Part shown: piece by piece, positions 17,695 through 43,138 of the stretch
How positions within the stretch are numbered: position 1 is the stretch's first letter
How the letters are laid out: every line of letters starts with the position of its first letter
Assembly: GCA_002438075.1 (NCBI GenBank)
Contig: DJSQ01000212.1
Span: 20,182-84,181, forward strand
DNA length: 64,000 nt
Source: Clostridiales bacterium UBA6330
GTDB taxonomy: Bacteria; Bacillota; Clostridia; Oscillospirales; CAG-272
Direction of reading: 5' to 3'
Translations under genes and position numbers: made by a program
The notes under the pieces: model-generated
What the model was told of the DNA's origin: nothing
The model's database searches: none
The model's input: only the letters and a program-made list of their open reading frames with translations

Positions 17695-19119
17695 ATGGAG
17701 TTTTTTGATATCCGCGACCTTTTTCGGATTGGCAAGCGCCGCAGACTTCGTCTGGGGCTGTGGCTGATTGCGGTCATCGCGCTGACGCTTTGGCTGTTTT
17801 ATCAGAACTACCGAGAGGCGGAGCAGTCGGCATACTTTGCCTGCGTTGTTGCGTCGCTGGTGTTTTTTGCGGCGGAGCTTGTATGGATTTTCCTGAAATC
17901 CGACCGCAGAATCACACCCCTGCTTCTTTTCCTCGCGGTGTTCTATCTGGTCCGCAACAGCCAGTTTCTGTTGCTTTTGTTCGGCGTATCCTTTGACGTG
18001 CACCATCTGGTGATGATGCGGGCGGAGCTGAAAAGCGCGATTGTCCTGACCTCGGTCGGCAACATCTGGGCGGGCTTTGCGGGCATCGTGGCAACGGTCC
18101 CGCAGAAAGAATTGCCCCCTGCGACCGAAGCACCGCAGGACCGCGTTGACCGGCATCGGCTGTTCGTCCTTCTCTGCGTCGGCGGACTTTTGACGGGTGC
18201 GGTTGCTTACGTTTTGGCAATCCTCCGCTTTACCCAATTCCTCTCGGGCGGCATGGCGGCGGTTGATGCGCTGAACGCTCGGCTTCCCCTGATTCTCCCA
18301 TGGCTGGAGGCGCTGTTCGTGCCGTTCGGCTTTGCGGCGGTCGCGTTCTACGGAAAGGAGCGCTTCGGTGCCGCGGCAATCGGCGCCCTGACGGGGTATT
18401 TCCTCCTGACGCTGGTCTGCGGCTCTCTGCCGCTCGGCGCGGCGGGGCTGTTCGCAACGGTCTGCCTGATCTGCCTGACCGTACAGCCAACGGGCAAGCG
18501 CGCGCAGACAATCGGAATTTTTGCGGCAATCGGGGTCCTGCTCCTGTTGCTTTCGTTGCTCGCAACCCTGTTGCGTGAGCCGAACGGACCCGAGACCTTC
18601 TCTCTGCGGAGCATCGCGGTGAATGCCTTTACGGGTATCGGTTACAGCTGTTTTGCTTTACTTGCCGCATTGCGAATCGTGCCGTCTGTTGAGCAGTTCC
18701 GCTTCGGTCGGGAGTATGCGGAAGCGCTCCTCGGCGGAATTCTGCCGCCCGAGGCGGATTCCTATGGCATTTTCGCGCGCCTGACCGCCGACACGCGGGT
18801 TTGGGATGCGTGGGGACCGCGCTATTTCAGCGAGGTGACCGCCGAAATCGGCTTTTCGCCCGATGCGGAGGCGTATCTCAATTTCGGTTGCTTCGGCTTT
18901 CTGGCAATATTCGTGATTTGTACGCTGATTGCCTTTTTCCTGAACCGTTACCGCCGATACGGGCAGAACAGCTGTTTCCCCAAGTACGCCGCGTGCGTGC
19001 TCCTGTACGCCTGCCTGACCTTCTCCTACCGTGGCGGCTCCGCAGTCCTGCGGATGCTCCTCTGGGGCGTGCTCCTGATGGCGCTTGCAATCCATTGGTG
19101 CGGGAAACGGAAAACTTGA
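17695..19119 (+). CDS. Polytopic membrane protein, function unknown (possibly an O-antigen/oligosaccharide polymerase-like protein)
   Basis: 474 aa with more than 10 hydrophobic segments. The functional guess rests only on size and topology. Confidence 0.55.
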   Translation: MEFFDIRDLFRIGKRRRLRLGLWLIAVIALTLWLFYQNYREAEQSAYFACVVASLVFFAAELVWIFLKSDRRITPLLLFLAVFYLVRNSQFLLLLFGVSFDVHHLVMMRAELKSAIVLTSVGNIWAGFAGIVATVPQKELPPATEAPQDRVDRHRLFVLLCVGGLLTGAVAYVLAILRFTQFLSGGMAAVDALNARLPLILPWLEALFVPFGFAAVAFYGKERFGAAAIGALTGYFLLTLVCGSLPLGAAGLFATVCLICLTVQPTGKRAQTIGIFAAIGVLLLLLSLLATLLREPNGPETFSLRSIAVNAFTGIGYSCFALLAALRIVPSVEQFRFGREYAEALLGGILPPEADSYGIFARLTADTRVWDAWGPRYFSEVTAEIGFSPDAEAYLNFGCFGFLAIFVICTLIAFFLNRYRRYGQNSCFPKYAACVLLYACLTFSYRGGSAVLRMLLWGVLLMALAIHWCGKRKT

Positions 19120-19181: not shown

Positions 19182-19730
19182 GTCGATGCCTTTGTGGAAT
19201 GCTCAGTTTATCCGATGACGAATCGTCTTGCTTTTGCAGGATAGCATACTCAAAACGTCAAATTAAAAGAAAGACACGATTTGTTATCAAATTTGTATTA
19301 CTTTTCGGATATCTTTTATTTGTATTCTGATGTTTGATTTTGTGAAACATCAACAATCTATTTTAACATGACAGTGCATGAATTTTTTTCTTTTTCGGAG
19401 ATTAGAAAAAGAATAAGATCTATTCTTCATATTAGGGCAGGTATTGAATCGAAATAATAGATTTGAGAGAAACGGAATTCGGAATGTTTAACAAAATAAT
19501 GAATTCTGCAAAATAAAAATGCAATTCCCAAGCAGGAAATTTCAGGGAATCCTGTGGCGGATATGCGATTGAAAAATGCAGAAGTCCGCGTCCCGAAATC
19601 AACTATTACTTCATTATAATATTATATAATACGCTTTTAATTGACTCGCTTTTTCACTTGCGAAAGGGAATTTTGTGCCGTTTTGCAAAGCAGTGTGCCC
19701 AAAACTTGCAAATTCTGTCGATACTCACAA

Positions 19731-19759
19731 TTGACAAATCCACTTCTTCGTATTATAAT
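19731..19759 (+). promoter_or_regulatory. Promoter of the giant lipoprotein gene (TTGACA, 17 nt, TATAAT)
   Basis: ttgaca at 19731-19736 and tataat at 19754-19759. A second TGgTATAAT lies at 19763-19771. This leaves a 5' UTR of about 140-150 nt. Confidence 0.5.
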
Positions 19760-19909
19760 ACATGGTATAATGGATAGTGGTTCTTGAAGCCCGTTGAAAG
19801 AAGGCTTTTCACCGGATTTCCGGTCCCGATTCTTGCAAAAAGCTTTGGTGCCGACGAATTGCCGTCCGTTTGGAATTTTTGCGCAACGGCGCAACAGGAG
19901 GGAAAGGAA

Positions 19910-22900
19910 ATGAAAGACAGACAACGCAGAATCTTCCTTGTGATTCTTGCATTGCTGGGAATGTTCATTCTGACATTCGCAGGATGCAAAAAGAAATCAC
20001 CCGGGGAAGAGACGTCGGAGATTCCCGAATCCGGCGATGAAGCAGGTACCTATTACTACGATGCGGGATCAGGAAACGAATACCTGATAACGCTCGGTGG
20101 ACAGTGTACCTATACATTAACGGTGGGAAATGCCTCCGAAAGCGGTTCTTACACGCTGGACGGTGCAACGCTCACGCTGAAGGCGGGCGACACTACCCGT
20201 ACCGCTGATTGGCACGGTAATGAGCTGACGCTGGATTATGACGGCTCGCAGCTGCGATTCCTGCGGAAGGTGGATTTCACGGTTTCCTTTGATTCACTCG
20301 GCGGAAGCGCAGTGGGGTCTGTAACCGTTCTCAACGGAAAAACCATCAGTGCGCCGCAGATGCCGACACGCGAGGGCTTCCTCTTCCTCGGCTGGTACAG
20401 CGACGCGGATTATAAAGCTCCGTTTGTGTTTGATGCAACGCCGGTTACTTCCGATCTGACCCTGCGTGCGCGCTGGGCGGAGAAGCCGACAGATGCGCTT
20501 GAGTATCGCATCCGCTATGACCTCGGTTATGACGGCGAGACGCTTGCTGACGCAGAAACCATTGGCGAAAAATTCTACAATGCGGCAGTTCCTGCGGCAA
20601 GAGAAGGCTATCGGTTCGTTGGCTGGTGGGTCAGTATGACGAATGATGCCAACAAGCTTTCTTATCGCTTGGAGGAGGGAAGCGAAAACGGCGGCACCGT
20701 CTTTGGCGCGGATACGACACTCTTCGCGGTTTGGCAGAAAACCAACGCCGCTTTCGATGTGCCTGCTGTCAGCGTTTCCGCAACTGCAATCAGCTGGGAT
20801 TCGGTTGGAGCAACCGCTTACCTTGTAAAGCTGACAGCACCCGACGGTTCTGTTGTGGTGGACAATCAGCGCACCACAAGCCCCACTTTCCCGATCAGCC
20901 TTGCTATGGCGGGCGAGTATCGCGTTGAGGTGACGGCGGTTGATGCAGGCGGAAACGCAGTGTCGGAAACAGCGGTGAGATACTACACCAACAAGGGACT
21001 GAACCGTGTTGGCGGCTTCACTGTGATTGATCCCTCGGTTCTGGTCTTCCGCGGCGTTCCGAATGCCGAGAAGTACCTGATTACGGTGGATTGCGGCAAC
21101 CCAGAGCATACTCACAAAGCGTTTGACAACGGCTTGGCGCTGTACTTCAACTTCGCAAATTGCGAAATGAAGAAGGGCGGCATCACCTTTACGGTGACGG
21201 CGGTAGCAAACGGCTATGCCTCCTCGACGGTGACCTATACATATGAAAGAAATCTGGATGCGGTAAAGGGCTTGAAGGTTCAGGATGACATCCTGACGTG
21301 GAATCCTGTCAGCGGCGCAACCTTCTATTGGGTTACGGTCGGCGATGAGACCTTTACGGTTCTTGGCAATTCGTTCTCGCTTTCCGCATTCAAGGATGCA
21401 AGCTACAGCATCGGTGTAACGCCCGTTGCGCATGGCTTCAATTCGTCCGAGGCGGCAACGCTGACCTATGAAAAGAAGTCTCCCGCACTTCCCGAAGAGG
21501 TTCGCCTGATCGGAACTGTCCTGACATGGGATGCAGTCCCGGGAGCGACTTCCTATGAGGTCAAGCTGGGAGACAAGACCCTGAATGTGGCGGCAGATAA
21601 GACCGAGCTGGATTTGGCAGATGCCGCATTCTTTGCTGAGGGCTCCGACTACACGCTGACGCTGAAGGTGACGGGCGCGAGCGGCTCCGCCGAAAAGGTG
21701 CTGACGGTTCGCTACAACGCCATGAATCCGCTTCTGACCTATTCGCAGGGCATTTTGCGCTGGAGTCCTGTTGTTGGCGCGGTGACCTACGAGGTGCAGA
21801 TGAACGGTGTCACGGTAGCAACGATCGACAGCGGCGACTGCTTCTATCGGGTCAACCGCTTCAGCAAATCCGGTGAAAACACCGTTCGGGTACGCTTCAA
21901 TAACGGTGTATACGATTCCGAATGGGCGGAGCTGACGGTTGTTGCGCACAAGGTGACCTTGGACGGGCGCGGCGGTAATGCGGTTGAATCGCTCTACAAG
22001 GCGGTTGGAGATCCCATTGATCTTCCGTCGATGACCAAAAACGGCTACAACTTCTCGGCATGGTATAACCTGCCGAACGGTGCGGAGAGCAACGGCAGAA
22101 GGTATTCCGATGTCTATTTTGTGGAATCGGGCGAAACGGTGCTCTATGCGTACTATACGCCCAAGGCGTTTACCATCCATTACAATACGGGCGATGGCAC
22201 CGATGAAACCGATACGGTTTACTTCGGCAAGAACTATCAGTTGAAGGTTCCTACGGTCTCGGTTGGGACCCGCGCATTCGGCGGATGGTTCAGCGCTCCC
22301 TACGGTGCGGGTATTGCATACACCGATGCGGAGGGCAACTCGCTGAACGCATGGAACTACGTGGATGACAACGTAACGGTTTACGCATTCTGGGTGGACT
22401 CGGTTCTGCGCTATGAGAAGATTGGAAATGCTTATGCGGTTTCCAAGGGCGCGCGGATTGATTTGGTCTCCTCTGTCACTATTCCCGCGAAGTTCAATGG
22501 ACTGCCTGTAACCGAGATTATCAGCGGCGCGTTTGAGGGTTGCAAGCTGTTGACCGAAATCAGACTGCCTGATACGCTGACCAGAATTGCGGCAGATACC
22601 GCATTTGAGGGATGTGACGCGCTGAAGTCGGTTACCGTTTACAAGAGCGGTGATGCGAAATACGCTCGGTATTCTTCGGTAGACGGTGTTCTGTTTGACA
22701 ACGGCGAAAGCGGTTCGACGCACGCGCCCCGTCCGGTTCTGATGCCGTCGGCAAAGACGGGTACCTACACGGTCCCGGGTGGCGTTGATGTGCTTCCTCG
22801 GTCCGCGTTTGCAAATTCCAAGCTTTCCAAAATCATCCTTCCGATTAGCGTGAAGGAAATCGGTGTTGAAGCGTTTGCAAACTGCACGAACCTTGTGTCG

Positions 22901-25900
22901 GTCGTCTTTGAGGACGCGGGTGCAACGGTTGGCGTGAATGGACTGACAATCGGTGACCGTGCGTTCCTGAACTGCACGGGTCTGACGGTTGTGACTCTGC
23001 CTGCAAGACTGCAAAGCATTTCGCTTACGGGCTATGCGTACCTGCAGGACGAAATGGTCTTTACCAATACGCAGAGTGCGTTTGAGGGCTGCGAGAATCT
23101 GACCGATGTCGTTGTGGCAAAGGGGCAGAAATCGACCTACACGTCGGTTGACGGTGTGCTTTTGGGCGAGAACGGTACGGCGTTGCTCTATTTCCCGATG
23201 GCGAAGAGCGCCGAGGGCTACGAGATTCCCGCAGGTGTGACCAAGATCGGTGACAGCGCGTTCCTCTCGGTCAGCGGTCTGCGCGGCACACTGGAGCTGC
23301 CGGGTCGTGTGACCTCTATCGGAACAGCGGCATTTGCAAAGTGCAGATATCTGACTGCGGTAACCTTCAAGTCCGGTATCAGCAAGGTGGAAATCGGCGA
23401 TTATGCGTTCTATGCAACCGATATTTCCGAGATTACCTTTGAGGATGGCAGCCATGTGACGAAAATCGGCAAGGCGGCATTCAAAAAGGATGATAACTTT
23501 GACGGAGACGACGATAAAACGTTGGTGATTCCGTCGACGGTGACATCTGTCGGTGATGAAGCCTTCTCCGGCTTCGGTGTGCTGGATGTGGAAATCAAGG
23601 AAGGCACCGAGGAGCTTGCGTTTGGCAACAATGTGTTCTACGATTGCGAGGTTGGAACTCTGACCCTTCCGAAGAACGTGACGGCGCTGGCAAACTTCTT
23701 CACAGGTCTTTCTGTTGAGAAAATCGTTGTCAACGAGGGCAATAAGACCTTTATCTCGAGAGACGGTGTGCTTTACACGAAGGATGCGCAAGGGAATCCC
23801 GCAACGCTTCTGATTTACCCCTCTGGTAAGGATGATACCGACTTTACGGTTCCGGACGGCGTGACCGCGATTGCAGATGGTGCATTCAAGGGCAACGAGT
23901 GGTTGGAGAACGTGACGCTCCCCGCAAGTCTGACCTCTATCGGTAAGGAAGCGTTCTCGGGCTGTAAATGGCTGGAAGCTGTGACCTTCGGTCAGACCTC
24001 CGGAACGCTGTCGATCGGTGAATATGCGTTCTATGAGACAGGGTTGGAAAAGTTGGAACTGCCGCAAGGCGTGAAGACCACCATTGGTGCATACGCATTT
24101 GCGGAAGATGACGATCTGGCAACGATCAAGCTGGGCGGCACGACTGAAATTGGCGCACATGCGTTTGAGGGTGCGGGCTATTATACGGATATTGAGTTCC
24201 CTGCAAGTCTGGAAACCATCGGTGACTGCGCATTCAAGGAAGCGAGCATCAGCTCCGTGACCTTCGAGGATGGCTCGAAACTGAAAACCATCGGTGGATA
24301 TGCATTCTCTGAAACCAAAATTTCGGAAATTGTGATCACGGGCTCCGTCGAATCCATCGGCGCTCAGGCGTTCTCTTATTGCGAATCCTTGAAAAAGGTG
24401 GAATTCATGGACGGAACTGCTGACCTTGTCATTGGTGCGCCTTACCTTGATGAGTACGGCAACTATGATTACGGTCGTGTGTTCTATTACTACAGCTCTG
24501 CGATTGAAACACTGAATCTTCCTGCAAGACTGACGGTGATTTATCAGGAAGCATTCTCCGATATGAGAAATCTGAAAACCGTGACCTTCGGCTCGGCGGA
24601 GAAGCCCAGCCGCCTGACCACGATTGGAGAGGCTGCTTTCAAATCTACGGGATTGACCTCGGTTACCATTCCGAAGTCTGTACGGAATACCGACAGCGCA
24701 ATCGGAATCGGCAAGGAAGCATTTGCTCAGGCGAATATTTCTACGCTGATTTTTGAAGCGGGCGGCTCGATGGAGACGGCTCCGCTGACCATTGGCGAAT
24801 CTGCCTTTGCCGATATCAAAGCCACAACTGTCACGTTCCCCGCAAGATTGGCGTTCTTCACCGATGCAAACGGCAATGTGACTGCTCCGTTGGCAAACGG
24901 CAAAGATGTATTCTCGGGCGCAAGTTCGAATAATGTGAAATTCTATCATGTAACGGGCGATGGCAAGAGTGCGTATGTCTCGGAGGATGGCATTCTCTAC
25001 AATGCGGATAAGACTGAGATTGTGCTTTGCGGAACCTCGAGAACGACGCCGGTTGTGATTCCTGCAACCGTGAAAACGATTGCGGCAGGAACCTTTAAGG
25101 GCTGTGCCTTCATTCCGACCCTGACCTTTGCGCAGGGGAGCGTATGTACCGAAATCGGAGCAGAAGCATTCAGCGGCTGCAAATTGTTGACCACTGTTGC
25201 GCTTCCGAACGGCATTACGACAATTGGCGAGGATGCGTTCTACAATTGCTCCGCCTTGACCGCATTCACACTTCCCGCATCGCTGGAGGTTTTTGACCCC
25301 TCGATTATTTCCTACTGCACCGGACTTCAGAATTTGTATGTTGCAAACGGAAGCAAGACCTACTGTGCAATTGACGGTGTACTGTTCACTGCCGACAAAA
25401 AGACTCTTGTATTCTATCTCGCTTCCCGCACGAATGCTTCCTATGAAATTCCGAACGGGACGGTTGAAATTGCGGATAGCGCATTCAATCGCAATTCGTA
25501 TCTGCAGAAGGTGACGATTCCGAACACTGTTATGTTGATTGGAAACGGCGCATTCAGCGGTTGTCGCGGACTGACCGAGGTGAACTTTGCTGCGGGCGGT
25601 ACCGACGCATTGGTTATCGGCTATGGTTCGTTCAGCTCAAGCGGCGTGACTTCAATCAGGATACCCGCAAGAACCAAAGCGATTGAGGGCTCTGCCTTCA
25701 GTAACGCAAAGCTTGCCTCGCTGACATTTGAGAACGGAAGCCAGTTGACTTCTATTGCGGATTATGCGTTCAGTTCGACTGCGCTGACCGCTGTGGCACT
25801 TCCTACCAGCCTGCGTGAATTGGGAGAGAGCGTATTCTCAAGCTGCAAGAGCCTGAAGAGTGCAATCCTTCCGGAAGGCTTGCTGACTGTTGATGAGGGG

Positions 25901-28423
25901 CTGTTTGATAATTGCCCGTCGCTGGTGCTGGTAAGCCTGCCTTCGACTCTGCAAACGCTTGGCAACTATGCGTTCAGAAACTGTGTATCGCTCAAGAACG
26001 TGAACTTCGCTAAGAATTCCGTGATTGAAGTCCTGTATATCGGTACGTTCTATCAGTGTGACTCGTTGGAGAGCATTGAACTTCCCGCAAGCCTGACGGA
26101 AATTCCGGAATTGCTGGAATCCGATACCAAGAGTTACGGCTTGGGTTTGTTCTACGAGTGCGGATCGCTGAAGCGTGTCGTATTCGAGGAGGGCAGCAAG
26201 CTGACGAAGATCGGTAGCTATGCATTTTCCGGTACGGTGTTGGAGTCCATTAACTTCCCGTCTGCGCTTGCTTCCATTGGTAAACAGGCATTTGAAAAAA
26301 CCAATCTGACAACGCTGACGATTCCGGTAACGGTGACATCCATCGGAGAGAATGCTTTTGACGGTTGCAAAAAGCTGACCTCTGTCACGCTTGGAGCGGG
26401 TGTGAAGGTTCTGCCTTCGTATGTGTTCCAGAATTGCGATGCTTTGACAACGGTTAACATTCCCGCAAGCCTCATTTCGATTGATTCTTCTGCTTTCGTG
26501 AATTGCGACAATCTGATAGGATTTACTGTTGATCGGGATAGCGAATCCTTCATGGAAAAAGACGGCGTTGTTTACGACATCAATTGGAACATCGTGCTCT
26601 ACCCGATGGCAAAGACGGAATTTGAGATTCCGGCAGGCATGACCAAGTTCCCTGAAAATTTCTTTGATGATTATAATGACTTTGGAGCTATACCGGAACA
26701 TATTACCGTGGAGGAAGGGAACACCGCATTTAAGGAGATTGGAGGAATTCTTTACGACTTTGAGCTGACTGAGATTGTGTTCTTCCCGGATGACATCACC
26801 GAATTTACGATTCCCGAAAAAATTCCGTCCTCGATGGCTCCCGATGAATTCTTTGAGCTTCTCTTTGAGAAGGGCGTGACTGTAACACTCTCTCCCGAAA
26901 ACACGGATTGCAAAGAACTGTTTGGTGTTATCTACTTTGAGAATGAGGAGTACGGTTGGCTCCCGGGCTATGTTCCCGCCGATTTGACCGAGTTTAAGAT
27001 TCCGAAAGAAGTCACATTCCTTTATTGTGGTGTGAGCTACTATGGATTCTTCCGTGGCAGAAACAGCGCGCTCAAAACGGTGACTTATGAGGAGCGTACT
27101 GAGGAATTGACTATTTACGGTAGCTTCTTCTCCTATGCAACCAATCTGGAAACCGTTTCGTTGCCTGAGAAAACAACGGATCTGAGCAATGCACGCGATT
27201 TGTTCAGCGGCTGTACTTCGCTGCGTGAAGTGAACCTGCCGGCGTCCTTGACTGCTTTGCCGAGAAATTTGGGCACTATGTCGGCACTTGAGCGTATCAA
27301 TGTTGCATCCGGAAACAAGAATTTCCGCTCGATTGACGGTGTTCTTTATCAGGTCAACGGTGACAGTGGTGAGCTTTTGCTGCTTCACTTCCCGGCTACC
27401 AAGACGACCTTTGAGATTCCTAAAGACCTTGGTGGAACTCTTTCCACGATTACCGCGCCCAATCTTGTGTCTGTGACCTATGAAAAGGATGGGGATGGAA
27501 ATGAGGCTATCGGTGCGGCAACCAAGCTGACGCTTTCAAACGGCTCTTATTCTGCAACGTTTAGGAACCTTGCCAAGTTGGAGACTGTTGAGTTGCCGTC
27601 TCGCGTGGAGAATCTTGTAAAAGATGCCTTCGTCGGATGCGACAAACTGACAAGCCTGACCGTTGCGGCGGGTGGAAAGTACAAGGTGGATTCTGTTGGC
27701 GTTGTGTATAAAAAGTCCGAAGAAAAAACCGGTTACTGGAGGCTGTTGTTTATCCCGACATTTGTGAAGTTTGAGAGCTTTGAGATTCCTGCGGATGTCA
27801 GCGAGATTGCGGCTAAGGCGTTTGCCGATACCGGTGTTGTGACAATCACCTTTGCAGCGCGCACCAAGGATCAAACCTTGAAGCTTCTCAATGAATGGAG
27901 TAGCGGCGCATTTGCAAACTGCAAGAATCTGACTACGATTGTATTTCCTGACGGAATCTTTGCTCCGATTACAAAGGACGGTGTTACAACGGTTACGCTT
28001 CCCGCAGGTACCTTCTATGGTTGCTCGGCGCTGACGTCTGTTACACTTCCCGCGGATCTGACGGAAATCGGTGAGAATGCGTTCTATGGATGCAGTGCTC
28101 TTGAAACGCTGACGCTTCCGAGTACGGTTACGAAGATTGGCGACAGTGCGTTCTATGATTGCACAGCGCTTACGACAATGGTTCTTCCTGCAAAGCTGGA
28201 GGAGATTGGTTCTTCTGCCTTCGCTTACTGCACGAGCCTGACCAAAATCGTGATTCCTGCTTCCGTAAAGGTCGTTGGCAGTTATGCGTTCTCCGGTTGG
28301 AAAAAGACGCAGACGATTTATGTAACCTTTGCAAAGGATGCACTTCCCGAGGGCTTCAATAACTACTGGCTCGGATATCGGACGTATGAAGTGAAGGTTG
28401 AGTACAACTACAAAGCAGATTAA
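19910..28423 (+). CDS. Giant surface lipoprotein (2,837 aa): InlB-type B-repeats + Fn3-like modules + BspA-type leucine-rich repeats
   Basis: Start chosen at MKDRQRRIFLVILALLGMFILTFAGC (lipobox, GGAGGG RBS). Flg_new/B-repeat units are present (e.g. VSFDSLGGSAV...REGFLFLGWYSD). Five modules carry W-x-x-V-x-G-A-x-x-Y. Then come near-continuous LRR_5-type units (IPxxVxxIGxxAFxxCxxLxxV). Confidence 0.85.
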   Translation: MKDRQRRIFLVILALLGMFILTFAGCKKKSPGEETSEIPESGDEAGTYYYDAGSGNEYLITLGGQCTYTLTVGNASESGSYTLDGATLTLKAGDTTRTADWHGNELTLDYDGSQLRFLRKVDFTVSFDSLGGSAVGSVTVLNGKTISAPQMPTREGFLFLGWYSDADYKAPFVFDATPVTSDLTLRARWAEKPTDALEYRIRYDLGYDGETLADAETIGEKFYNAAVPAAREGYRFVGWWVSMTNDANKLSYRLEEGSENGGTVFGADTTLFAVWQKTNAAFDVPAVSVSATAISWDSVGATAYLVKLTAPDGSVVVDNQRTTSPTFPISLAMAGEYRVEVTAVDAGGNAVSETAVRYYTNKGLNRVGGFTVIDPSVLVFRGVPNAEKYLITVDCGNPEHTHKAFDNGLALYFNFANCEMKKGGITFTVTAVANGYASSTVTYTYERNLDAVKGLKVQDDILTWNPVSGATFYWVTVGDETFTVLGNSFSLSAFKDASYSIGVTPVAHGFNSSEAATLTYEKKSPALPEEVRLIGTVLTWDAVPGATSYEVKLGDKTLNVAADKTELDLADAAFFAEGSDYTLTLKVTGASGSAEKVLTVRYNAMNPLLTYSQGILRWSPVVGAVTYEVQMNGVTVATIDSGDCFYRVNRFSKSGENTVRVRFNNGVYDSEWAELTVVAHKVTLDGRGGNAVESLYKAVGDPIDLPSMTKNGYNFSAWYNLPNGAESNGRRYSDVYFVESGETVLYAYYTPKAFTIHYNTGDGTDETDTVYFGKNYQLKVPTVSVGTRAFGGWFSAPYGAGIAYTDAEGNSLNAWNYVDDNVTVYAFWVDSVLRYEKIGNAYAVSKGARIDLVSSVTIPAKFNGLPVTEIISGAFEGCKLLTEIRLPDTLTRIAADTAFEGCDALKSVTVYKSGDAKYARYSSVDGVLFDNGESGSTHAPRPVLMPSAKTGTYTVPGGVDVLPRSAFANSKLSKIILPISVKEIGVEAFANCTNLVSVVFEDAGATVGVNGLTIGDRAFLNCTGLTVVTLPARLQSISLTGYAYLQDEMVFTNTQSAFEGCENLTDVVVAKGQKSTYTSVDGVLLGENGTALLYFPMAKSAEGYEIPAGVTKIGDSAFLSVSGLRGTLELPGRVTSIGTAAFAKCRYLTAVTFKSGISKVEIGDYAFYATDISEITFEDGSHVTKIGKAAFKKDDNFDGDDDKTLVIPSTVTSVGDEAFSGFGVLDVEIKEGTEELAFGNNVFYDCEVGTLTLPKNVTALANFFTGLSVEKIVVNEGNKTFISRDGVLYTKDAQGNPATLLIYPSGKDDTDFTVPDGVTAIADGAFKGNEWLENVTLPASLTSIGKEAFSGCKWLEAVTFGQTSGTLSIGEYAFYETGLEKLELPQGVKTTIGAYAFAEDDDLATIKLGGTTEIGAHAFEGAGYYTDIEFPASLETIGDCAFKEASISSVTFEDGSKLKTIGGYAFSETKISEIVITGSVESIGAQAFSYCESLKKVEFMDGTADLVIGAPYLDEYGNYDYGRVFYYYSSAIETLNLPARLTVIYQEAFSDMRNLKTVTFGSAEKPSRLTTIGEAAFKSTGLTSVTIPKSVRNTDSAIGIGKEAFAQANISTLIFEAGGSMETAPLTIGESAFADIKATTVTFPARLAFFTDANGNVTAPLANGKDVFSGASSNNVKFYHVTGDGKSAYVSEDGILYNADKTEIVLCGTSRTTPVVIPATVKTIAAGTFKGCAFIPTLTFAQGSVCTEIGAEAFSGCKLLTTVALPNGITTIGEDAFYNCSALTAFTLPASLEVFDPSIISYCTGLQNLYVANGSKTYCAIDGVLFTADKKTLVFYLASRTNASYEIPNGTVEIADSAFNRNSYLQKVTIPNTVMLIGNGAFSGCRGLTEVNFAAGGTDALVIGYGSFSSSGVTSIRIPARTKAIEGSAFSNAKLASLTFENGSQLTSIADYAFSSTALTAVALPTSLRELGESVFSSCKSLKSAILPEGLLTVDEGLFDNCPSLVLVSLPSTLQTLGNYAFRNCVSLKNVNFAKNSVIEVLYIGTFYQCDSLESIELPASLTEIPELLESDTKSYGLGLFYECGSLKRVVFEEGSKLTKIGSYAFSGTVLESINFPSALASIGKQAFEKTNLTTLTIPVTVTSIGENAFDGCKKLTSVTLGAGVKVLPSYVFQNCDALTTVNIPASLISIDSSAFVNCDNLIGFTVDRDSESFMEKDGVVYDINWNIVLYPMAKTEFEIPAGMTKFPENFFDDYNDFGAIPEHITVEEGNTAFKEIGGILYDFELTEIVFFPDDITEFTIPEKIPSSMAPDEFFELLFEKGVTVTLSPENTDCKELFGVIYFENEEYGWLPGYVPADLTEFKIPKEVTFLYCGVSYYGFFRGRNSALKTVTYEERTEELTIYGSFFSYATNLETVSLPEKTTDLSNARDLFSGCTSLREVNLPASLTALPRNLGTMSALERINVASGNKNFRSIDGVLYQVNGDSGELLLLHFPATKTTFEIPKDLGGTLSTITAPNLVSVTYEKDGDGNEAIGAATKLTLSNGSYSATFRNLAKLETVELPSRVENLVKDAFVGCDKLTSLTVAAGGKYKVDSVGVVYKKSEEKTGYWRLLFIPTFVKFESFEIPADVSEIAAKAFADTGVVTITFAARTKDQTLKLLNEWSSGAFANCKNLTTIVFPDGIFAPITKDGVTTVTLPAGTFYGCSALTSVTLPADLTEIGENAFYGCSALETLTLPSTVTKIGDSAFYDCTALTTMVLPAKLEEIGSSAFAYCTSLTKIVIPASVKVVGSYAFSGWKKTQTIYVTFAKDALPEGFNNYWLGYRTYEVKVEYNYKAD
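22465..28325 (+). repeat. Protein-level array of BspA-type LRR units inside the giant lipoprotein gene
   Basis: About 1,950 aa of consecutive ...AF.GC..L..V.IP..V..IG... units. At 23-25 aa per unit this implies roughly 80 units (not counted individually). The DNA copies are diverged; no long identical DNA repeats were noticed. Confidence 0.8.
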
Positions 28424-28460
28424 GACAATACAGCTGACCCTTTGAGGCAGACAACGGCAT

Positions 28461-28512
28461 CCGCCCGGGAATTTTCCCGGGTGGGTGCTACTGTCGTTTT
28501 TGGGGAAACGAC
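28461..28512 (+). terminator. Tandem hairpins after the giant gene (probable terminator)
   Basis: 10-bp stem ccgcccggga / tcccgggtgg (28461-28484), then gtcgttt / aaacgac (28493-28512), with T-runs around them. Confidence 0.45.
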
Positions 28513-28528
28513 AAAATTTTCAATTTCT

Positions 28529-28557
28529 TTGCAAGTTTCGATTGAAATATGCATAAT
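28529..28557 (+). promoter_or_regulatory. Candidate promoter of the MoxR/VWA operon (TTGCAA, 17 nt, CATAAT)
   Basis: ttgcaa at 28529-28534 and cataat at 28552-28557, 34 nt upstream of the 28591 start. Confidence 0.4.
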
Positions 28558-28590: not shown

Positions 28591-29730
28591 ATGTTGGAAA
28601 AAGATTCTTTATTCAAGCAATATCATCATCGGATGGTACGGGAGGGGATATTCTCGTCTGTCTGCTTCGGCTTGATGATTGCCTCGGGCGCGGTTTTTGT
28701 GTCGGCGCTGGTTTGCTGGCTTTTGCGGTTTACGCAGATCCTGTTGCCGCTTGCAATCGGCGGCGGGGTACTTTTGGTCAGCTCGATTCTGTTCTTCGTG
28801 CTGAAATTCCGACCTACCGAGCGGAAGGTCGCGCGACGGATCGACCAAATGGGGCTTGAGGAACGCACGGTTACAATGCTGGACCTTGCGGAGGATGACT
28901 CCTACATTGCCCGTAAACAGCGTGAGGATACCCGCGAGAAGGTGCGGGAGGTCAAGCGCGAACAGGTCCGTTCCAATTTCCCGCTTGTGAATCTCAAAGC
29001 GAGCGCCGTATTCATGCTTTGCGCGGCGCTTGTGATGGGTGCTGGTATGACAACCGTTATGGGGCTGACGGGCTCCGGTGTTATTCCGTCTCCCGATATT
29101 TTGCCGTCGGACGAAAAGCAGGAAACCTTCTTCACGGTAACGTATCTTACCGAAGGAGAGGGCGACATTGAAGGCGAGGCGGACCAGACCGTGCTTGCGG
29201 GCGAGGATGCCACCACGGTTGTGGCGGTTCCGCAGGATGGTTGGATTTTCGTCAAGTGGAGCGACGGTGTCAAGAGCCCCGAGCGGACAGACCTCGGTTT
29301 GACCGATGATTTGGAGGTGACCGCCACATTTGAGGAAATCGGCGATGGCTCGGACGGTGAGGACGGCGACGGTGCCGGCAAAGACGACGATGCGGATGCC
29401 GACAAGGATGTTCCGGACGATAACAAGACCGACGGTGCTTCGTCTGCCGGCTCCGATGGCGGCGACGGCGGCGAGGGGAACAGCGACGGTGATAAGGGTG
29501 ACGGAAGCGGTTCCGGAAACGGCGGTCAGGAAGGCGGCGGTAAAGGAAACGGTCGGGGCGAAGGCTCCGGCGGCGGATGGTCCGAAGGCAATCAGGTCAT
29601 CGACGGAAAAACCGATTACCGTGATGTTTACGATAACTATTACGACGAAGCAATGGAAATCATCCGGAACGGCGGAGAGCTGCCGGATTACCTCAAGGAA
29701 TTCATTGAAAAATACTACGGCAGCATCTGA
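28591..29730 (+). CDS. Membrane protein with a B-repeat-like domain, an Asp/Gly-rich low-complexity tract and a conserved-looking C-terminal helix
   Basis: Start at MLEKDSLF (GGAGGAG RBS, 7-nt spacing). Three hydrophobic segments. FFTVTYLTEGEGDIEG...DGWIFVKWSDG resembles a B-repeat. About 100 aa are rich in D/G/S/E/K. It ends ...ELPDYLKEFIEKYYGSI. Confidence 0.7.
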   Translation: MLEKDSLFKQYHHRMVREGIFSSVCFGLMIASGAVFVSALVCWLLRFTQILLPLAIGGGVLLVSSILFFVLKFRPTERKVARRIDQMGLEERTVTMLDLAEDDSYIARKQREDTREKVREVKREQVRSNFPLVNLKASAVFMLCAALVMGAGMTTVMGLTGSGVIPSPDILPSDEKQETFFTVTYLTEGEGDIEGEADQTVLAGEDATTVVAVPQDGWIFVKWSDGVKSPERTDLGLTDDLEVTATFEEIGDGSDGEDGDGAGKDDDADADKDVPDDNKTDGASSAGSDGGDGGEGNSDGDKGDGSGSGNGGQEGGGKGNGRGEGSGGGWSEGNQVIDGKTDYRDVYDNYYDEAMEIIRNGGELPDYLKEFIEKYYGSI

Positions 29731-29775: not shown

Positions 29776-30837
29776 ATGATTACAGAGGAAAGCATTCAGC
29801 AGTTCAGCAAAAATTGCGAGAATATTTTTACCCAGATTCGCCGCGACGTCATTGGTCAGCAGGAGGTCGTGGAGGGAACCGTCATTGCGATGATTGCAGG
29901 CGGTAACGTCCTGCTTGAGGGTGTCCCCGGGGTCGGTAAGACCCGTTTGGTGCGGACGCTCGGTCGCGTGTTCGATATGCCGTTCTCCCGTATTCAGTTC
30001 ACCCCCGACCTGATGCCCGCAGACGTAACCGGTACCAATATCATCGTCAAGGGTGAGGACGGAAACTCGCAGTTCCAATTCCAGCCGGGACCGATTTTCA
30101 GCAACATTGTGCTTGCCGATGAAATCAACCGTGCAACCCCGAAAACGCAGTCCGCGCTTCTGGAGGCGATGCAGGAGCACACGGTTACGGTTATGGGTGT
30201 TTCCCGCAAAATGAAGGAGCCGTTCTTCGTGCTCGCAACCCAGAACCCGATCGAGCAGGACGGTACCTATCCGTTGCCCGAGGCGCAGATGGACCGTTTC
30301 ATGTTCAATCTGATTGTTCCGAACCCGGGGCTGGATGAGCTGATGGCGATTGTCAACATGACCCAGAAAACGATGGCAGAGGTTGCCGAGCCTGTTTGCA
30401 GCGGTGAGGAGCTGCTGAAAATGCGTGAAACCGCAAATCAGGTCCCCGTTGCGGAGGAGGTCATGCGGTATGCCATGACGCTCTGCTCGGCAACGCACCC
30501 GAACAGCGACTGTGCTTCCGAAGCGGCGAAAAAATATGTCCGTCTGGGTGCCAGCCCGCGTGCGGGTCAGGCACTGATTTCCGCAGCAAAGGTCAAGGCG
30601 CTGATGAACGGGCGCTTCAATGTTGCCTACAGCGATGTGAATGCGCTGGCGGCACCCGTTCTGCGCCACAGAATGAAGCTGAACTTCGAGGCGATTGCCG
30701 ACCGTGTCGCTCCCGATGCGATTGTGAAGATGATTGTCGAGGAAGTCGGCACACGGTTCGGTCTGAACCCCAAAAAGGAAGAGGCTGCCGCAAAAGCGGA
30801 AAGCAAGAAGGGGCTGTTCTCCGGCAAAAAGGCATGA
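29776..30837 (+). CDS. MoxR-family AAA+ ATPase
   Basis: 353 aa. Walker A GVPGVGKT, Walker B LADEINRA, RIQFTPDLMPADVTG and sensor motifs typical of MoxR/RavA-like ATPases. Confidence 0.9.
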   Translation: MITEESIQQFSKNCENIFTQIRRDVIGQQEVVEGTVIAMIAGGNVLLEGVPGVGKTRLVRTLGRVFDMPFSRIQFTPDLMPADVTGTNIIVKGEDGNSQFQFQPGPIFSNIVLADEINRATPKTQSALLEAMQEHTVTVMGVSRKMKEPFFVLATQNPIEQDGTYPLPEAQMDRFMFNLIVPNPGLDELMAIVNMTQKTMAEVAEPVCSGEELLKMRETANQVPVAEEVMRYAMTLCSATHPNSDCASEAAKKYVRLGASPRAGQALISAAKVKALMNGRFNVAYSDVNALAAPVLRHRMKLNFEAIADRVAPDAIVKMIVEEVGTRFGLNPKKEEAAAKAESKKGLFSGKKA

Positions 30838-30919
30838 TGCCTTTTGCCGAAGCAGTCAAACCCAAAGAAAGGATTTTGCCAAGGCAATTTTGCCAAGGTC
30901 AAGGCGGTAAACAATCAGA

Positions 30920-31816
30920 ATGAAGACATCCTATCTGAATGACGCTTTTTTCAGCCGATTGGAAACCTGCGCACTCAATCTGCGGTCTGATCTGACAGGC
31001 TTTTTCGGAGGAAAGCATCTCGTGAAAACCTACGGACAGACGGTGGAATTTGCCGATTATCGGGAATATATGCTCGGGGATGATATTCGGCGAATCGACT
31101 GGAATCTGTACAGTCGGTTTGAAAAATATTTTCTGAAGCTGTTCACCGACGAAAGACAAATGCACACGCAAATCTTTCTGGATTGCTCCGCTTCCATGGG
31201 AAGAGTACAGCCGGGCAAGGCCGCTTACGCAATCGCGGCAGCGGCGGCGCTCGGGTTTCTGTCCGTCCATAACACCGATAAGGTCTCCTTTAAGCTGATG
31301 CGAGAGAATCGGGCGGAGGACCCTTACGGCGTTTTGGTTGGAAAGAAAGCGTTCTTTCGGGCGATTGCATCGTTGGAGCAAACCGAATTTGACGGCGAAA
31401 CGGATATTGCAGCTGCTGTGACGGGGTGCGATACGGGTACACGTGACGGTCTGACGGTTATTATTTCGGATTTCCTGACGGACAGCAACTGGAAAAAGGC
31501 GGTTGATTATCTGCAATATAAGAACCGTCAGGTGCTCCTGCTTCAGGTTCTGACACCGGATGAGTTGGACCCCTCCTACAACGGAAACGTCAACCTGATG
31601 GACGCGGAAGCGGTGGATCAGTTCGACAGTCGGAATATGCGGCTGAAAATTACCTCCGGAATGCTCGCGGCGTATGACGAAGCCCTGCGGGACTTCCTTG
31701 CCGACATGAAGTCGTTTTGCTCGTCTCGTGACACGGGATATATTACGGTGAACAGCAAGGAGCCGATTGAGCGGGTGCTGTTCGGTGATTTGCTGAAAGT
31801 AGGTATCATGCAATGA
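30920..31816 (+). CDS. DUF58 domain protein
   Basis: 298 aa. FADYREYMLGDDIRRIDWNLYSR is the DUF58 signature. The position directly after MoxR is the classical arrangement. Confidence 0.85.
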   Translation: MKTSYLNDAFFSRLETCALNLRSDLTGFFGGKHLVKTYGQTVEFADYREYMLGDDIRRIDWNLYSRFEKYFLKLFTDERQMHTQIFLDCSASMGRVQPGKAAYAIAAAAALGFLSVHNTDKVSFKLMRENRAEDPYGVLVGKKAFFRAIASLEQTEFDGETDIAAAVTGCDTGTRDGLTVIISDFLTDSNWKKAVDYLQYKNRQVLLLQVLTPDELDPSYNGNVNLMDAEAVDQFDSRNMRLKITSGMLAAYDEALRDFLADMKSFCSSRDTGYITVNSKEPIERVLFGDLLKVGIMQ

Positions 31817-33744
31817 GTTTACTTGCCCCACTTGGTCTGCTGGGTTTACTCGGAACAGGTATTCTGATTTTCATTTACCTGATTAAACCGAATTATCAGC
31901 AGAAATTGGTTTCCAGTACCTATATCTGGAAGCTGAGTCTGAAATATAAGAAAAAACGGGTACCAGTCAGCCGCTTGCGGAATATTTTGATTTTCCTGTG
32001 TCAGTTTCTGGCACTGGCGGCATTCGGGCTTCTGTTGGCTCAACCTGTGATTCAACACATGGTTACAACTCCGAAAAACGAAAAGGTCGTAATTATTGAT
32101 GCGTCCGCAAGTATGCAGGTGGAGAGCGACGGAAAGACCCGATTTGAACGCGCCGTGGAGCAGGTCAAGGCTTTGGCTGAAACCACGCTTTCCTCCGATG
32201 ACGGTGCAATGAGCGTTATTGTGGCGGATTCCGATGCCTATCTGTTGGTTTCCCGCGCAACGGCGGGGAATCTTTCGGAGGTCAACGCGAAGCTGACCGC
32301 ACTTTGCAGTGACGGGCTTGCCTGCGGCTACGGCAGTGCGGATATGAACGGTGCCGCCGAGCTTGCAGAGACAATTCTGAACCGAAATTCCGAATCGGAG
32401 GTCCTGCTCTATACCGCGACGGAATACATCAATCAGGGCGGCTTTCATGTTGTGAATGTTTCCTCTGCGGACGACTGGAATGCGGCGGTACTCAACTGTG
32501 TTCCGAATCTGGCGGAGCAGACCAACTCCTACTCCTTCATGGTTGATGTCGGATGCTACGGAAGGTCAAAGGCCGTGGCGGTTTCCTGCGAATTGTTCGG
32601 GGTCAACAAGCTGACCGACAGCACCGGTACGGTGACTCGTCCTGCGGTCAATCTGAGCGCGACCAAAACGGAATATTTCAGTGATGCGGAGCCCACAAAA
32701 ACCATAGAATTCACGATAGAGGATTTCGGGTACGATTCGCAGATTGTCACCTTTGAATATATGTATGTACATATCGATGAGGATGACGGTTTTGAAAAGG
32801 ACAACACATTCAATGTCTACGGTGGAGAAAAGCCAGTGTTGCGCGTGCAGTACGCAAGTACGCAGACGAATAACTTCTTTTCAGGTGTGTTGCGTTCCAT
32901 GCGGCAGGCATTGATGGGAAGCTATACGCTGGATGTTAAAACGGTCGCTTATAAGGATGCCAAGACCGAGGGCTTTGACCTTTACATCTTTGAGCATCGG
33001 ATGCCGGAGGAAATGCCAACAGACGGCGTGGTGCTGCTGGCGGATCCTGACAGCGCACCGAGCGGAAGCGGCTTGGAGTTCGGAGATTCGGTATCGGTGG
33101 ACAGCTCTTCAACGCTTGCGTCGGGTGTGACGCATCCGCTTACCGATCACGTCAACCCCGACCGCATCACTGTGGCGAAGTACCGCCGCGTGAACGCATC
33201 TGATGGTTATGACGAATTGCTTTATTACCACGGCGATCCGATTCTGCTGGTGAAAAACGAGGATCGCGCCAAGACCGTGGTCCTGACGCTGGACCTGAAC
33301 AACTCCAGCCTCGGTGTTGTGCTGGATTTTCCGGTGCTGATGTATAATCTGTTTACCTATTTCTTCCCGCCGACTCTGACGGGGAATGCCTTTGAGGTAG
33401 GGGAAAGCGTGACCGTGAATGCACGAGGCACGGACCTGACGCTGGATGGTCCCGGATATCAGAAAGCGGGCTTTGACAGCCTGCCTGCGACCGTGATTCT
33501 CACACAGCCCGGGGACTATACCGTCATGCAGACCAACATGAAGGGAACAACGGAATTACAGCAGTTTTTCGTACACATTCCGCAAAGCGAAAGCAACATT
33601 ACCGAGGCAGTGGATGAATTGCCGCTGCTCCGTTCGGAAACAACGATGGAAGAAACTACCACAGACCTCATTCTTTGGATTGCGGCGGCGGCACTCTTCC
33701 TGCTGTTTGCGGAGTGGTGGTTGCACTCCAGAGAATCACTGTAA
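31813..33744 (+). CDS. BatA-type N-terminal double-TM protein with a VWA-like domain and a C-terminal TM anchor
   Basis: 643 aa. N-terminus LLAPLGLLGLLGTGILIFIYLIKP...; MIDAS-like VVIIDASASM; C-terminal LILWIAAAALFLLFAEWWL. ATGA overlap with the DUF58 gene. Confidence 0.8.
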   Translation: MSLLAPLGLLGLLGTGILIFIYLIKPNYQQKLVSSTYIWKLSLKYKKKRVPVSRLRNILIFLCQFLALAAFGLLLAQPVIQHMVTTPKNEKVVIIDASASMQVESDGKTRFERAVEQVKALAETTLSSDDGAMSVIVADSDAYLLVSRATAGNLSEVNAKLTALCSDGLACGYGSADMNGAAELAETILNRNSESEVLLYTATEYINQGGFHVVNVSSADDWNAAVLNCVPNLAEQTNSYSFMVDVGCYGRSKAVAVSCELFGVNKLTDSTGTVTRPAVNLSATKTEYFSDAEPTKTIEFTIEDFGYDSQIVTFEYMYVHIDEDDGFEKDNTFNVYGGEKPVLRVQYASTQTNNFFSGVLRSMRQALMGSYTLDVKTVAYKDAKTEGFDLYIFEHRMPEEMPTDGVVLLADPDSAPSGSGLEFGDSVSVDSSSTLASGVTHPLTDHVNPDRITVAKYRRVNASDGYDELLYYHGDPILLVKNEDRAKTVVLTLDLNNSSLGVVLDFPVLMYNLFTYFFPPTLTGNAFEVGESVTVNARGTDLTLDGPGYQKAGFDSLPATVILTQPGDYTVMQTNMKGTTELQQFFVHIPQSESNITEAVDELPLLRSETTMEETTTDLILWIAAAALFLLFAEWWLHSRESL

Positions 33745-33759
33745 GAAAGGAGAAACAAA

Positions 33760-36546: not shown

Positions 36547-36591
36547 CGGCAGATGACCGAAAAGGAAAAGACCGAAATGAAGGAGAACGGA

Positions 36592-39417: not shown

Positions 39418-39482
39418 CCGATTTTAGTCGGCGGTTGATATTCGGGAGTGATTTCCCGATTGGTAAGAAAGGATATGAATCA

Positions 39483-43051: not shown

Positions 43052-43138
43052 AAGATGTTAGCATAAACGCACGAAAGGTCGGGCGGCTGTTGCAGATGAA
43101 GAGCCGTCGGACGAGGATTCATGATATCGGAGGAAGAT

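Follow-up and report, generated by a model that had tools for sequence, protein, structure and literature searches.

The 64,000-nucleotide stretch analysed here, hereafter the window, is part of contig DJSQ01000212.1 and comes from an uncultured species of gut Clostridia; among named organisms, Clostridium sp. CAG:448 is its closest relative. On the forward (+) strand of the window, which carries the nine genes of the locus described below, positions 19910-28423 (stop codon included) form a stop-free open reading frame for a giant lipoprotein of 2,837 amino acids. An earlier note on this DNA, made from the letters alone, had taken the frame to be one unbroken gene, and this is confirmed. The Shine-Dalgarno sequence AGGAGG (19896-19901) is placed 8 nt 5' of the ATG, and M1, K2 and C26 are invariant in the orthologue alignments; together these fix the start codon. 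We consider the frame real because the identical protein recurs in several independent assemblies: it is found on at least six contigs of separate assemblies, and on four contigs across NCBI, Logan and ENA.

A frame of this length could still be an artefact of repeat collapse or expansion during assembly, or a decaying pseudogene. One GenBank MAG record does carry the gene in two pieces, HBF14798.1 (aa 1-1487, partial) and HBF14797.1 (aa 1450-2837), three assemblies of a related species are shifted by +1 at an A8 run, and the orthologous frame is also broken at loci L017 and L039. Against this explanation stand the identical full-length proteins, locus L001, which shows 100% identity with the window across 14.5 kb, and the 64 of 79 orthologous loci that keep an intact long ORF. 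The DNA of the gene offers nothing to collapse: TRF found no tandem repeats in it, and its repeat copies are 60-88% alike over spans of at most 60 nt, which excludes both a recent expansion of repeats and a repeat prone to misassembly. Its longest homopolymers fall short of 7 nt for A/T and of 6 nt for G/C, so a phase-variable run is excluded in the window's gene as well. A break caused by assembly, a possibility that the earlier note had raised, is thereby excluded, and an artefact or pseudogene appears extremely improbable.

The opposite strand holds an antisense ORF of 1,551 aa (20294-24949), which we dismissed as a by-product of codon usage. Its frame is the antisense one in register with the sense codons, in which a stop can arise only opposite sense TTA, CTA or TCA; these make up 8 of the 2,838 codons of the giant gene, and in orthologues the length of the antisense ORF varies from 193 to 2,751 codons.

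The gene has its own sigma-70 promoter, TTGACA-17 nt-TATAAT at 19731-19759, which matches the consensus at 12 of 12 positions, as previously read, and is the sole perfect match within 10.5 kb. The nearest relatives, L019 and L006, carry a like promoter equally far from the ATG (about -180). Given the promoter's position, the 5' UTR (19766-19909) comes to the ~145 nt proposed before. No Rfam family reached the gathering score anywhere in the window, with chance-level matches only in 19500-20000, and the leader folds no better than its shuffles (z = 0.04); a riboswitch or structured RNA was rejected on these grounds. Among relatives the leader sequence is poorly conserved except around the ribosome-binding site.

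Downstream of the stop codon, an intrinsic terminator spans 28450-28500 and consists of a 15-bp G+C-rich hairpin and a T-run (fold z = -5.1): a strong hairpin at 28456-28489 sits within an outer stem (28450-28495), followed by T5. Seven species keep the hairpin, and 4 of its 14 pairs show compensatory changes. Of the tandem terminators formerly suggested at 28461-28512, only this one is convincing, as the second hairpin (7 bp, 28493-28512) is weak and overlaps the outer stem and T-tail of the first. Under a loose criterion without background control, 43 of 65 loci have a terminator-like hairpin within 200 nt of the stop. A weaker promoter-like site (28528-28557) lies ahead of the next gene. 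Monocistronic transcription of the giant gene is plausible; the conserved terminator suggests that it is transcribed apart from the downstream genes, in which case synteny is the sole argument for co-function.

The protein begins with a signal peptide and lipobox, LTFAG-C26 (19910-19987). The PROSITE-type lipobox rule is satisfied by MKDRQRRIFLVILALLGMFILTFAGC, and MKDRQRRIFLVILALLGMFILTFAG-C26 displays the basic n-region, the h-region and the [LVI][ASTVI][GAS]-C motif within the first 15-35 residues that mark a lipoprotein. C26 is nearly invariant in orthologues; in place of the lipobox, about one fifth of them have an N-terminal TM helix without Cys. The 2,837-aa protein lacks an LPXTG-like motif as well as a hydrophobic segment at its C-terminus, which places it outside the sortase-anchored class, and the end of its last LRR block (aa 2801-2837, 28310-28420) is free of any wall or membrane anchor. 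The conserved lipobox Cys, its substitution by a TM helix in some orthologues and the lack of a C-terminal anchor together identify the N-terminus as the anchor, with predicted lipid attachment, and support the earlier choice of a lipid over LPXTG. The short N-terminal domain expected next is present at aa 45-120 (20042-20269): AlphaFold places eight consecutive beta strands at aa 46-119, and G46, Y48, Y49, G79 and Y81 are conserved. It is possibly lipocalin-like, the Pfam Lipocalin_4 match being weak and sub-threshold (E 0.017).

Three repeat families, B-repeat, Fn3-like and LRR_5, make up the remainder, not the four counted before. InlB-type B-repeats occur at both sites where they had been read as two pairs: repeats 1 and 2 at aa 122-277 (20273-20740; Pfam Flg_new, E 2.1e-21, two stretches) and repeats 3 and 4 at aa 690-846 (21977-22447; Flg_new, E 1.7e-6, two stretches). 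The second pair scores barely above the cut-off (28.4 bits vs 27) and shows weak internal homology to repeat 2; over the whole protein Flg_new (PF09479) reaches 85.7 bits, above its curated cut-off. Between the pairs lie five Fn3-fold modules (aa 281-689, 20750-21976), each carrying W-x-x-V-x-G-A-x-x-Y, which the structure model and internal homology bear out. Modules F1, F3, F4 and F5 share 27-30% identity with one another, and the AlphaFold model of the region (pLDDT 83.8) shows seven-stranded Fn3/Ig-like beta-sandwiches in tandem, which Foldseek aligns with tandem Fn3 arrays at E 1e-11 to 2e-8 (gp130/OSMR 1e-11, fibronectin 1fnf 2e-8). Pfam fn3 (PF00041) gave no match at E ≤ 1, with PKD/Ig-like matches only, all sub-threshold, so Fn3-like is the right wording. 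The second module contains a Cys/His insertion, C395-G-N-P-E-H400-T-H402 ... N-C418 (21092-21163); C395, H400, H402 and C418 are invariant, and the motif is present in all 64 full-length orthologues.

The BspA-type LRR region follows at aa 854-2800 (22469-28309). Pfam LRR_5 (PF13306) matches at 830.7 bits (cut-off 27.7) in 14 stretches, and a self-built HMM marks 57 stretches, fragments among them. The type and the length of ~1,950 aa agree with the earlier description; its word 'uninterrupted' does not hold, as the region comprises roughly 70-80 turns in about 10-11 blocks parted by 'DGVLY' cap sheets, with ten cap motifs (aa 925, 1081, 1285, 1693, 1822, 2218, 2278, 2338, 2476 and 2596) and a degenerate stretch at aa 2200-2560. 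AlphaFold models aa 846-2045 with pLDDT 90.1 as a right-handed beta-solenoid, for which Foldseek returns 4gt6 at the top (3e-15), then 4cp6, 4fs7, 4h09 and 6mlx, in agreement with a PDB sequence search. The array aligns collinearly with those of orthologues over 1,600-2,000 aa at 35-60% identity, and its DNA is free of recent repeats; both observations support the earlier view of an array that is old and maintained.

Using a 7-sequence alignment as the query of a genome scan, we found an intact single long ORF (2,396-3,991 aa) at 64 of 79 species-level loci, in distinct uncultured gut Clostridia. The best 150 cluster representatives of an exhaustive search are mostly 2,300-3,968 aa long, with the whole N-module at their N-terminus. 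This 850-aa module is constant in length and better conserved than the LRR part, which diverges faster and differs in length between species (protein total ~2,400 to 4,000 aa); relative to L005, identity is 80% for the stalk and 60% for the LRR part.

The giant gene, previously read as free-standing, turns out to be the first of a clade-conserved nine-gene locus. Directly 3' of it in 62 of 64 intact loci is a gene for a 379-aa partner (28591-29730) with about three TM helices, an external divergent B-repeat (Flg_new_2, E 5e-8) and an acidic/Gly-rich tail. Then come a MoxR-type AAA+ ATPase (29776-30837; Pfam AAA_3, E 6.5e-62), a DUF58 protein (30920-31816; Pfam DUF58, E 1.7e-31) and a BatA-like membrane protein with one VWA domain and three TM segments (31813-33744; Pfam BatA and VWA_2). 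They occur in 52, 46 and 39 of the 64 intact loci, respectively, the loci without them mostly having too little downstream sequence to show them; MoxR is 73-97% identical.

Further downstream, the order runs through a membrane protein with two VWA domains and a TM at both ends (33760-36546; Pfam VWA and VWA_2), a 954-aa lipoprotein that combines an Fn3-like module with LRR_5 and a B-repeat (36553-39417), a Big_3 lipoprotein of ~1,100 aa (39435-42806) and a 2,533-aa S8 subtilase-PA-fn3_5-Big_2-LRR_5 protein with N- and C-terminal TM (43121-50722). The first three keep their position in the extended loci L084-L086, where the subtilase gene is also adjacent, inverted in L085. The full nine-gene order is thus seen in three extended loci, with 45-63% identity for the double-VWA protein. 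The downstream order persists down to 36% N-module identity. The window shares no upstream neighbour with any locus, and in all relatives examined the order breaks directly 5' of the giant gene. A 373-aa ORF (50719-51840) was considered as a duplicate of the TM/B-repeat partner and rejected, as it lacks similarity and encodes another lipoprotein.

The core order MoxR, DUF58, BatA-type TM-VWA and second VWA at 29776-36546 is that of the Bat (Bacteroides aerotolerance) operon, to which we compared it together with the MoxR-VWA pairs of Leptospira (Bat) and Borrelia (BB0172/BB0173). Unlike in those systems, the module here has giant LRR lipoproteins and an LRR-subtilase as its neighbours; the TPR proteins of the Bat operon (BatC/BatE) are absent, with no TPR match, and LRR_5, Big_3 and S8-LRR genes follow instead. 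The function of the Bat and spirochaete MoxR-VWA systems is described as still unsettled (PMC3557215, PMC5700661). A literature search returned nothing relevant on the present protein family or on a MoxR-LRR linkage, and no paper tying a MoxR-VWA module to LRR proteins.

Among known LRR proteins, the closest counterparts are BspA of Tannerella forsythia, LrrA of Treponema denticola, TpLRR (6mlx), PcpA of Streptococcus pneumoniae (4cp6) and the gut-commensal structures 4gt6, 4fs7 and 4h09. They share with the giant protein the fold and the repeat of ~23 residues, L-x-x-V-x-I-P-x-S-V-x-x-I-G-x-x-A-F-x-x-C; they act at the cell surface in a used or presumed binding role, and by analogy the giant protein may do likewise. 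However, they have one LRR block of roughly 6-16 repeats, as opposed to the many blocks found here, and are anchored by a T9SS C-terminal domain, choline-binding repeats or LPXTG in place of a lipobox. They have neither the conserved 850-aa stalk nor the fixed genomic partnership with a MoxR/VWA module. The best NCBIfam match, through the LRR_5 repeats, is HupY/LrrG (NF047961), a Gram-positive surface LRR adhesin of group B Streptococcus; at 262.1 bits against a cut-off of 1,250 the giant protein is not its equivalog, and length, stalk and anchor differ. With the Listeria internalins InlA and InlB it has in common the B-repeats (Flg_new) and the logic of an LRR binding domain combined with Ig-like spacers. 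It falls outside that class all the same: internalins have LRRs of another subtype, with a cap and an inter-repeat Ig domain of their own, both missing here, and the polarity is reversed, since their LRR is N-terminal and their anchor (LPXTG or GW) C-terminal.

We favour, with a probability of about 0.6, a giant lipid-anchored surface protein that heads a conserved locus, consists of a stalk and an LRR binding head, and cooperates with the VWA proteins. Processing by Lgt and Lsp would leave the predicted N-terminal lipid anchor at the outer face of the cytoplasmic membrane, and the Ig-like modules would form a stalk lifting the LRR solenoids through and past the cell wall. There, the concave LRR faces may bind a protein or glycan ligand, which could come from the host, a food particle, a different microbe or one of the other products of the locus. 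The VWA proteins have basic TM1-TM2 loops and basic C-tails, and by the positive-inside rule their VWA domains are predicted to be outside the cell; the giant protein could cooperate with these membrane-tethered domains, and the cytoplasmic MoxR/DUF58 pair would serve the assembly of the VWA proteins. A point against this explanation is that the second-copy loci L016 and L043 are without MoxR and DUF58. As to the very large adhesin-like protein proposed before, the surface-protein design stands, on domains and lipobox; the adhesin function itself is one that we infer from analogy with BspA, PcpA, TpLRR and HupY/LrrG. Host-specific adhesins tend to be gained, lost and reshuffled. Near-universal collinear conservation in the clade counts against reading the giant protein as one of them.

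Two other explanations have to be weighed. The gene could encode a free-standing monocistronic adhesin independent of its neighbours, the gene order reflecting co-regulation of surface genes or simple inheritance; its perfect promoter, the strong terminator conserved in seven species, the terminator-like hairpins at most loci under the loose count and the promoter-like site ahead of the partner gene all fit this. Order is nevertheless broken upstream in every relative examined and kept downstream, in 62 of 64 loci for the partner and over nine genes at full length. Inertia alone is an insufficient explanation for such asymmetry, and we think an independent adhesin unlikely.

Alternatively, the protein might be a structural part of the envelope, such as a core fibre or coat, whose LRR faces would bind the cell's own outward-facing VWA domains, the other LRR lipoproteins of the locus or wall polymers and so build a fixed layer or spacer at the surface. 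The family occurs widely across the clade, mostly at one or two copies per genome, its LRR region is collinear across species and not shuffled, and apart from the MoxR/DUF58 pair all products of the locus are membrane-anchored and extracytoplasmic. VWA domains are classical protein-protein interaction modules. On the other side, the LRR part diverges faster than the stalk, as the comparison with L005 illustrates, and its length spreads over more than 1,500 aa, as expected of a surface under diversifying pressure; domain searches of the giant protein also revealed no S-layer (SLH) or cell-wall-binding domain. A structural envelope part seems quite unlikely, and we retain the lipid-anchored binding protein cooperating with VWA partners.

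A bolder extension of the favoured reading treats all nine genes as one conserved surface apparatus, in which VWA (MIDAS) proteins matured by MoxR/DUF58 dock or organise the three LRR proteins of 2,837, 954 and 2,533 aa. We regard it as speculative and rather doubtful; if true, it would give a concrete client and function to the long-unexplained Bat-type MoxR-VWA operons. In any case, the association of the giant gene with a MoxR-DUF58-VWA module and with two more LRR proteins is a testable hint on the function of Bat-type operons, unsettled since they were first described. The nine-gene locus with its MoxR/VWA module is the only moderately novel element here. With its fixed 850-aa stalk and variable LRR head, the giant protein defines a large and so far uncharacterised family of surface proteins in gut Clostridia, a promising candidate for attachment to hosts or particles in bacteria that are known from MAGs only. 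By itself, it is another very large surface protein of the BspA-like kind: long LRR_5 arrays number in the thousands, with 5,781 metagenomic proteins at E ≤ 1e-30 among the candidates scored.

The giant gene (window 19910-28423, +) is one open reading frame of 2,837 codons. Its start is well fixed: an AGGAGG sits 8 nt upstream, and aligning the protein with its six closest database homologues shows M1, K2 and the lipobox cysteine C26 to be invariant. The identical 2,837-aa sequence has been recorded on at least six contigs, and on four contigs drawn from NCBI, Logan and ENA; one of these, L001, matches the window exactly across 14.5 kb. A reading frame broken in the real genome, the outcome that the earlier note set against its own reading, is ruled out by this identical intact protein across independent assemblies. 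One GenBank MAG record carries the gene as two overlapping pieces, HBF14798.1 (DDW30_03780; aa 1-1487, partial) and HBF14797.1 (DDW30_03775; aa 1450-2837); as the other assemblies are intact, the split is a defect of that assembly. No tandem repeats or long homopolymers were found in the gene, and its repeat copies are just 60-88% alike, over at most 60 nt.

A related species of the human gut carries the orthologue as two ORFs, of 891 and 1,995 aa (L002 12521-12560; L003 and L004 likewise). They are separated by a +1 frameshift in a run of eight A (A8), which all three assemblies show; A7 would rejoin both ORFs into one frame of ~2,890 aa. The gene there may be a fixed pseudogene, or it may be in the OFF state of slipped-strand phase variation. 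Separately, we rejected a 1,551-aa antisense ORF overlapping the giant gene (window 20294-24949, -): it lies in the codon-aligned frame, which the near absence of TTA, CTA and TCA from the giant gene (8 of 2,838 codons) keeps free of stops, and its counterpart in orthologues ranges from 193 to 2,751 codons.

The layout first read from the translation holds in outline, with three corrections concerning the number of repeat families, the continuity of the LRR part and the term Fn3. Instead of four repeat families, we find three. Pfam places two Flg_new (InlB B-repeat) units at aa 123-275, two more, just above threshold, at aa 690-850, and LRR_5 of the BspA type in 14 stretches (830.7 bits). Between the B-repeat pairs (aa 281-689) it yields only sub-threshold PKD/Ig matches. 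The five modules there are nevertheless mutually homologous: F1, F3, F4 and F5 share 27-30% identity, F2 being divergent. The AlphaFold model of aa 1-900 (pLDDT 83.8) resembles PDB structures with Fn3 domains in tandem (gp130/OSMR, 1e-11; fibronectin Fn7-10, 2e-8); 'Fn3-like' is thus apt for the fold, but not as a Pfam family. That model also has eight successive strands at aa 46-119; given a weak Lipocalin_4 match (E 0.017), a lipocalin-like barrel is plausible here but unproven.

The model of aa 846-2045 (pLDDT 90.1, pTM 0.63) shows one beta strand per 23-28 residues, i.e. ~45 LRR turns, with five three-stranded sheets placed at 'DGVLY...YP...IP-x-GV' motifs. Its closest structures are the BspA-type LRR proteins 4gt6, 4cp6 (PcpA), 4fs7, 4h09 and 6mlx (TpLRR), and sequence search is concordant. 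Rather than the uninterrupted array described previously, we see a chain of capped blocks: the whole protein contains ten cap motifs ('DGVLY...'), and the LRR stretch at aa 2200-2560 is degenerate. The LRR part consists of ~10-11 capped blocks and, by extrapolation, roughly 70-80 turns. The proposal of a lipid anchor in place of LPXTG stands: the N-terminus, MKDRQRRIFLVILALLGMFILTFAG-C, fits the PROSITE-type lipobox rule, and the protein has neither an LPXTG motif nor a C-terminal hydrophobic segment.

Scanning one genome per species, we collected 219 relatives and kept 79 loci, every one of them from uncultured Clostridia of the human, chicken, ruminant or rodent gut. Of these 79 loci, 64 encode the orthologue as an unbroken ORF of 2,396-3,991 aa; most of the others are truncated by a contig end, and two copies occur in several genomes. 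In an exhaustive profile search, most of the best 150 cluster representatives are 2,300-3,968 aa long, with the whole 850-aa N-module at the N-terminus. This stalk is constant in length and better conserved than the LRR part, reaching 80% identity in the nearest relative, Clostridium sp. CAG:448. The LRR part accounts for the length differences among orthologues and diverges faster (60% identity vs 80% for the N-module in L005, 50% vs 61% in L007), while staying collinear across 1,600-2,000 aa, which supports the claim of an old, maintained array.

A Cys/His motif in the second Fn3-like module, C-G-N-x-x-H-x-H ... N-C (C-G-x3-H-x-H ... N-C; aa 395-418, window 21092-21163), occurs in all 64 full-length members, 14 of which have it twice, and may form a disulfide or a metal site. 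About four fifths of the members carry a lipobox. In the remaining fifth (L027, L043, L048, L051, L054, L057, L059, L060, L063, L065, L068, L072, L073 and L079) the lipobox Cys is absent and an uncleaved-looking transmembrane helix occupies the N-terminus. The lipid anchor can thus be exchanged for a helix anchor within the family, which is good evidence that the N-terminus is the point of membrane attachment.

The significance of the giant gene rests mostly on its surroundings. It heads a conserved locus and is not a free-standing adhesin gene. Among the 64 intact loci, the 379-aa TM/B-repeat protein is encoded downstream in 62, MoxR in 52, DUF58 in 46 and a BatA-type VWA protein in 39; where MoxR, DUF58 or BatA is missing, the downstream sequence is in most cases too short. 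Three further loci, reached via orthologues of the two-VWA protein (45-63% identical), show the whole nine-gene order, exactly that of window 19.7-50.7 kb: giant LRR lipoprotein, TM/B-repeat protein, MoxR, DUF58, BatA-VWA, 2xVWA protein, LRR_5 lipoprotein (~940 aa), Big_3 lipoprotein (~1,110 aa) and S8 subtilase-PA-fn3_5-Big_2-LRR_5 protein (~2,520 aa), the last inverted in one locus. None of the upstream window genes (ArgRS, YebC, CitMHS transporter, Wzy-like) lies near the giant gene in any relative. Two second-copy loci, L016 and L043, lack MoxR and DUF58: there BatA and 2xVWA come straight after the giant gene and its TM/B-repeat partner.

The reported consensus promoter (19731-19759) is a 12/12 sigma-70 match, TTGACA-17-TATAAT, and the sole perfect one in the 10.5 kb scanned. 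Promoters of similar kind lie ~180 nt upstream of the ATG in the two nearest relatives (L019 and L006), and at -151 or -290 in others; the ~145-nt leader is therefore a real feature. The leader matches no Rfam family and folds no better than shuffled sequence. Of the tandem terminators proposed downstream, one strong hairpin remains (28456-28489; z = -5.1), with a 15-bp stem that can be lengthened to 28450-28495 and a T-run behind it, kept in six other species with compensatory changes in 4 of 14 pairs; the second, of 7 bp, is weak and overlaps the outer stem and T-tail of the first. With its own promoter and a conserved terminator, the giant gene may well be transcribed separately.

From hydrophobic segments and the positive-inside rule, MoxR and DUF58 are predicted to be cytoplasmic and the remaining products to be lipoproteins or TM-anchored. 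Both VWA proteins (window 31813-36546, +) carry a pair of TM helices at the N-terminus, with an Arg/Lys-rich loop between them, and a single TM helix with a basic tail at the C-terminus, so that their VWA domains are predicted to lie outside, tethered at both ends. The 2,533-aa LRR-subtilase kept at the locus end (43121-50722, +; S8 subtilase, PA, fn3_5, Big_2 and a long LRR_5 array) has TM segments at both termini, the C-terminal helix being followed by a KKKKGR tail, and no LPXTG. Predicted lipoproteins at 36553-39417, 39435-42806 and 50719-51840 (+), with lipoboxes LLGGC, LGTSC and LLPSC, reuse the W-x-x-V-G-G-A-x-Y Fn3-like module, LRR_5, B-repeat and Big_3.

Beyond the demonstrated anatomy, anchor type, conservation and linkage of the giant gene, a mode of action can be proposed. 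C26 would be lipidated via Lgt/Lsp, and the stalk, made up of the single beta domain, the four B-repeats and the five modules of Fn3 fold, would raise the LRR solenoids off the membrane. Their faces might then bind a ligand, a role for which the LRR proteins BspA, PcpA, TpLRR and HupY/LrrG are taken as precedent, and the protein would co-operate with the VWA proteins, whose VWA domains are predicted to face outward. The chief alternative is that the protein forms a structural fibre on the surface and binds partners of the cell itself; near-universal, collinear conservation suits such a fibre no less than it suits adhesion to the host. The observation in the earlier note is confirmed, and its interpretation supported in part.

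Profile and fold both place the giant protein in the BspA-type LRR class. Internalins differ in LRR subtype and have reversed polarity, and the giant protein lacks their LPXTG or GW anchor, which excludes an internalin identity; the HupY/LrrG equivalog was likewise rejected (262 bits vs a cut-off of 1,250). Since metagenomes commonly contain LRR_5 arrays of very great length, and databases already list the protein (as 'hypothetical protein'), the gene belongs to a known protein class. Our literature search found no description of an LRR protein linked to a Bat-like MoxR-DUF58-VWA module; passages in two papers treat the function of such modules as still open (PMC3557215, PMC5700661).

Directly upstream of the giant gene lies a Wzy-like O-antigen polymerase homologue (17695-19119, +; E 4.9e-12), an adjacency not kept in relatives. 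The surface-protein region (window 18000-60000) has a G+C content of 0.48-0.56, lower than the 0.58-0.63 of the flanking 1-16 kb and 60-64 kb.
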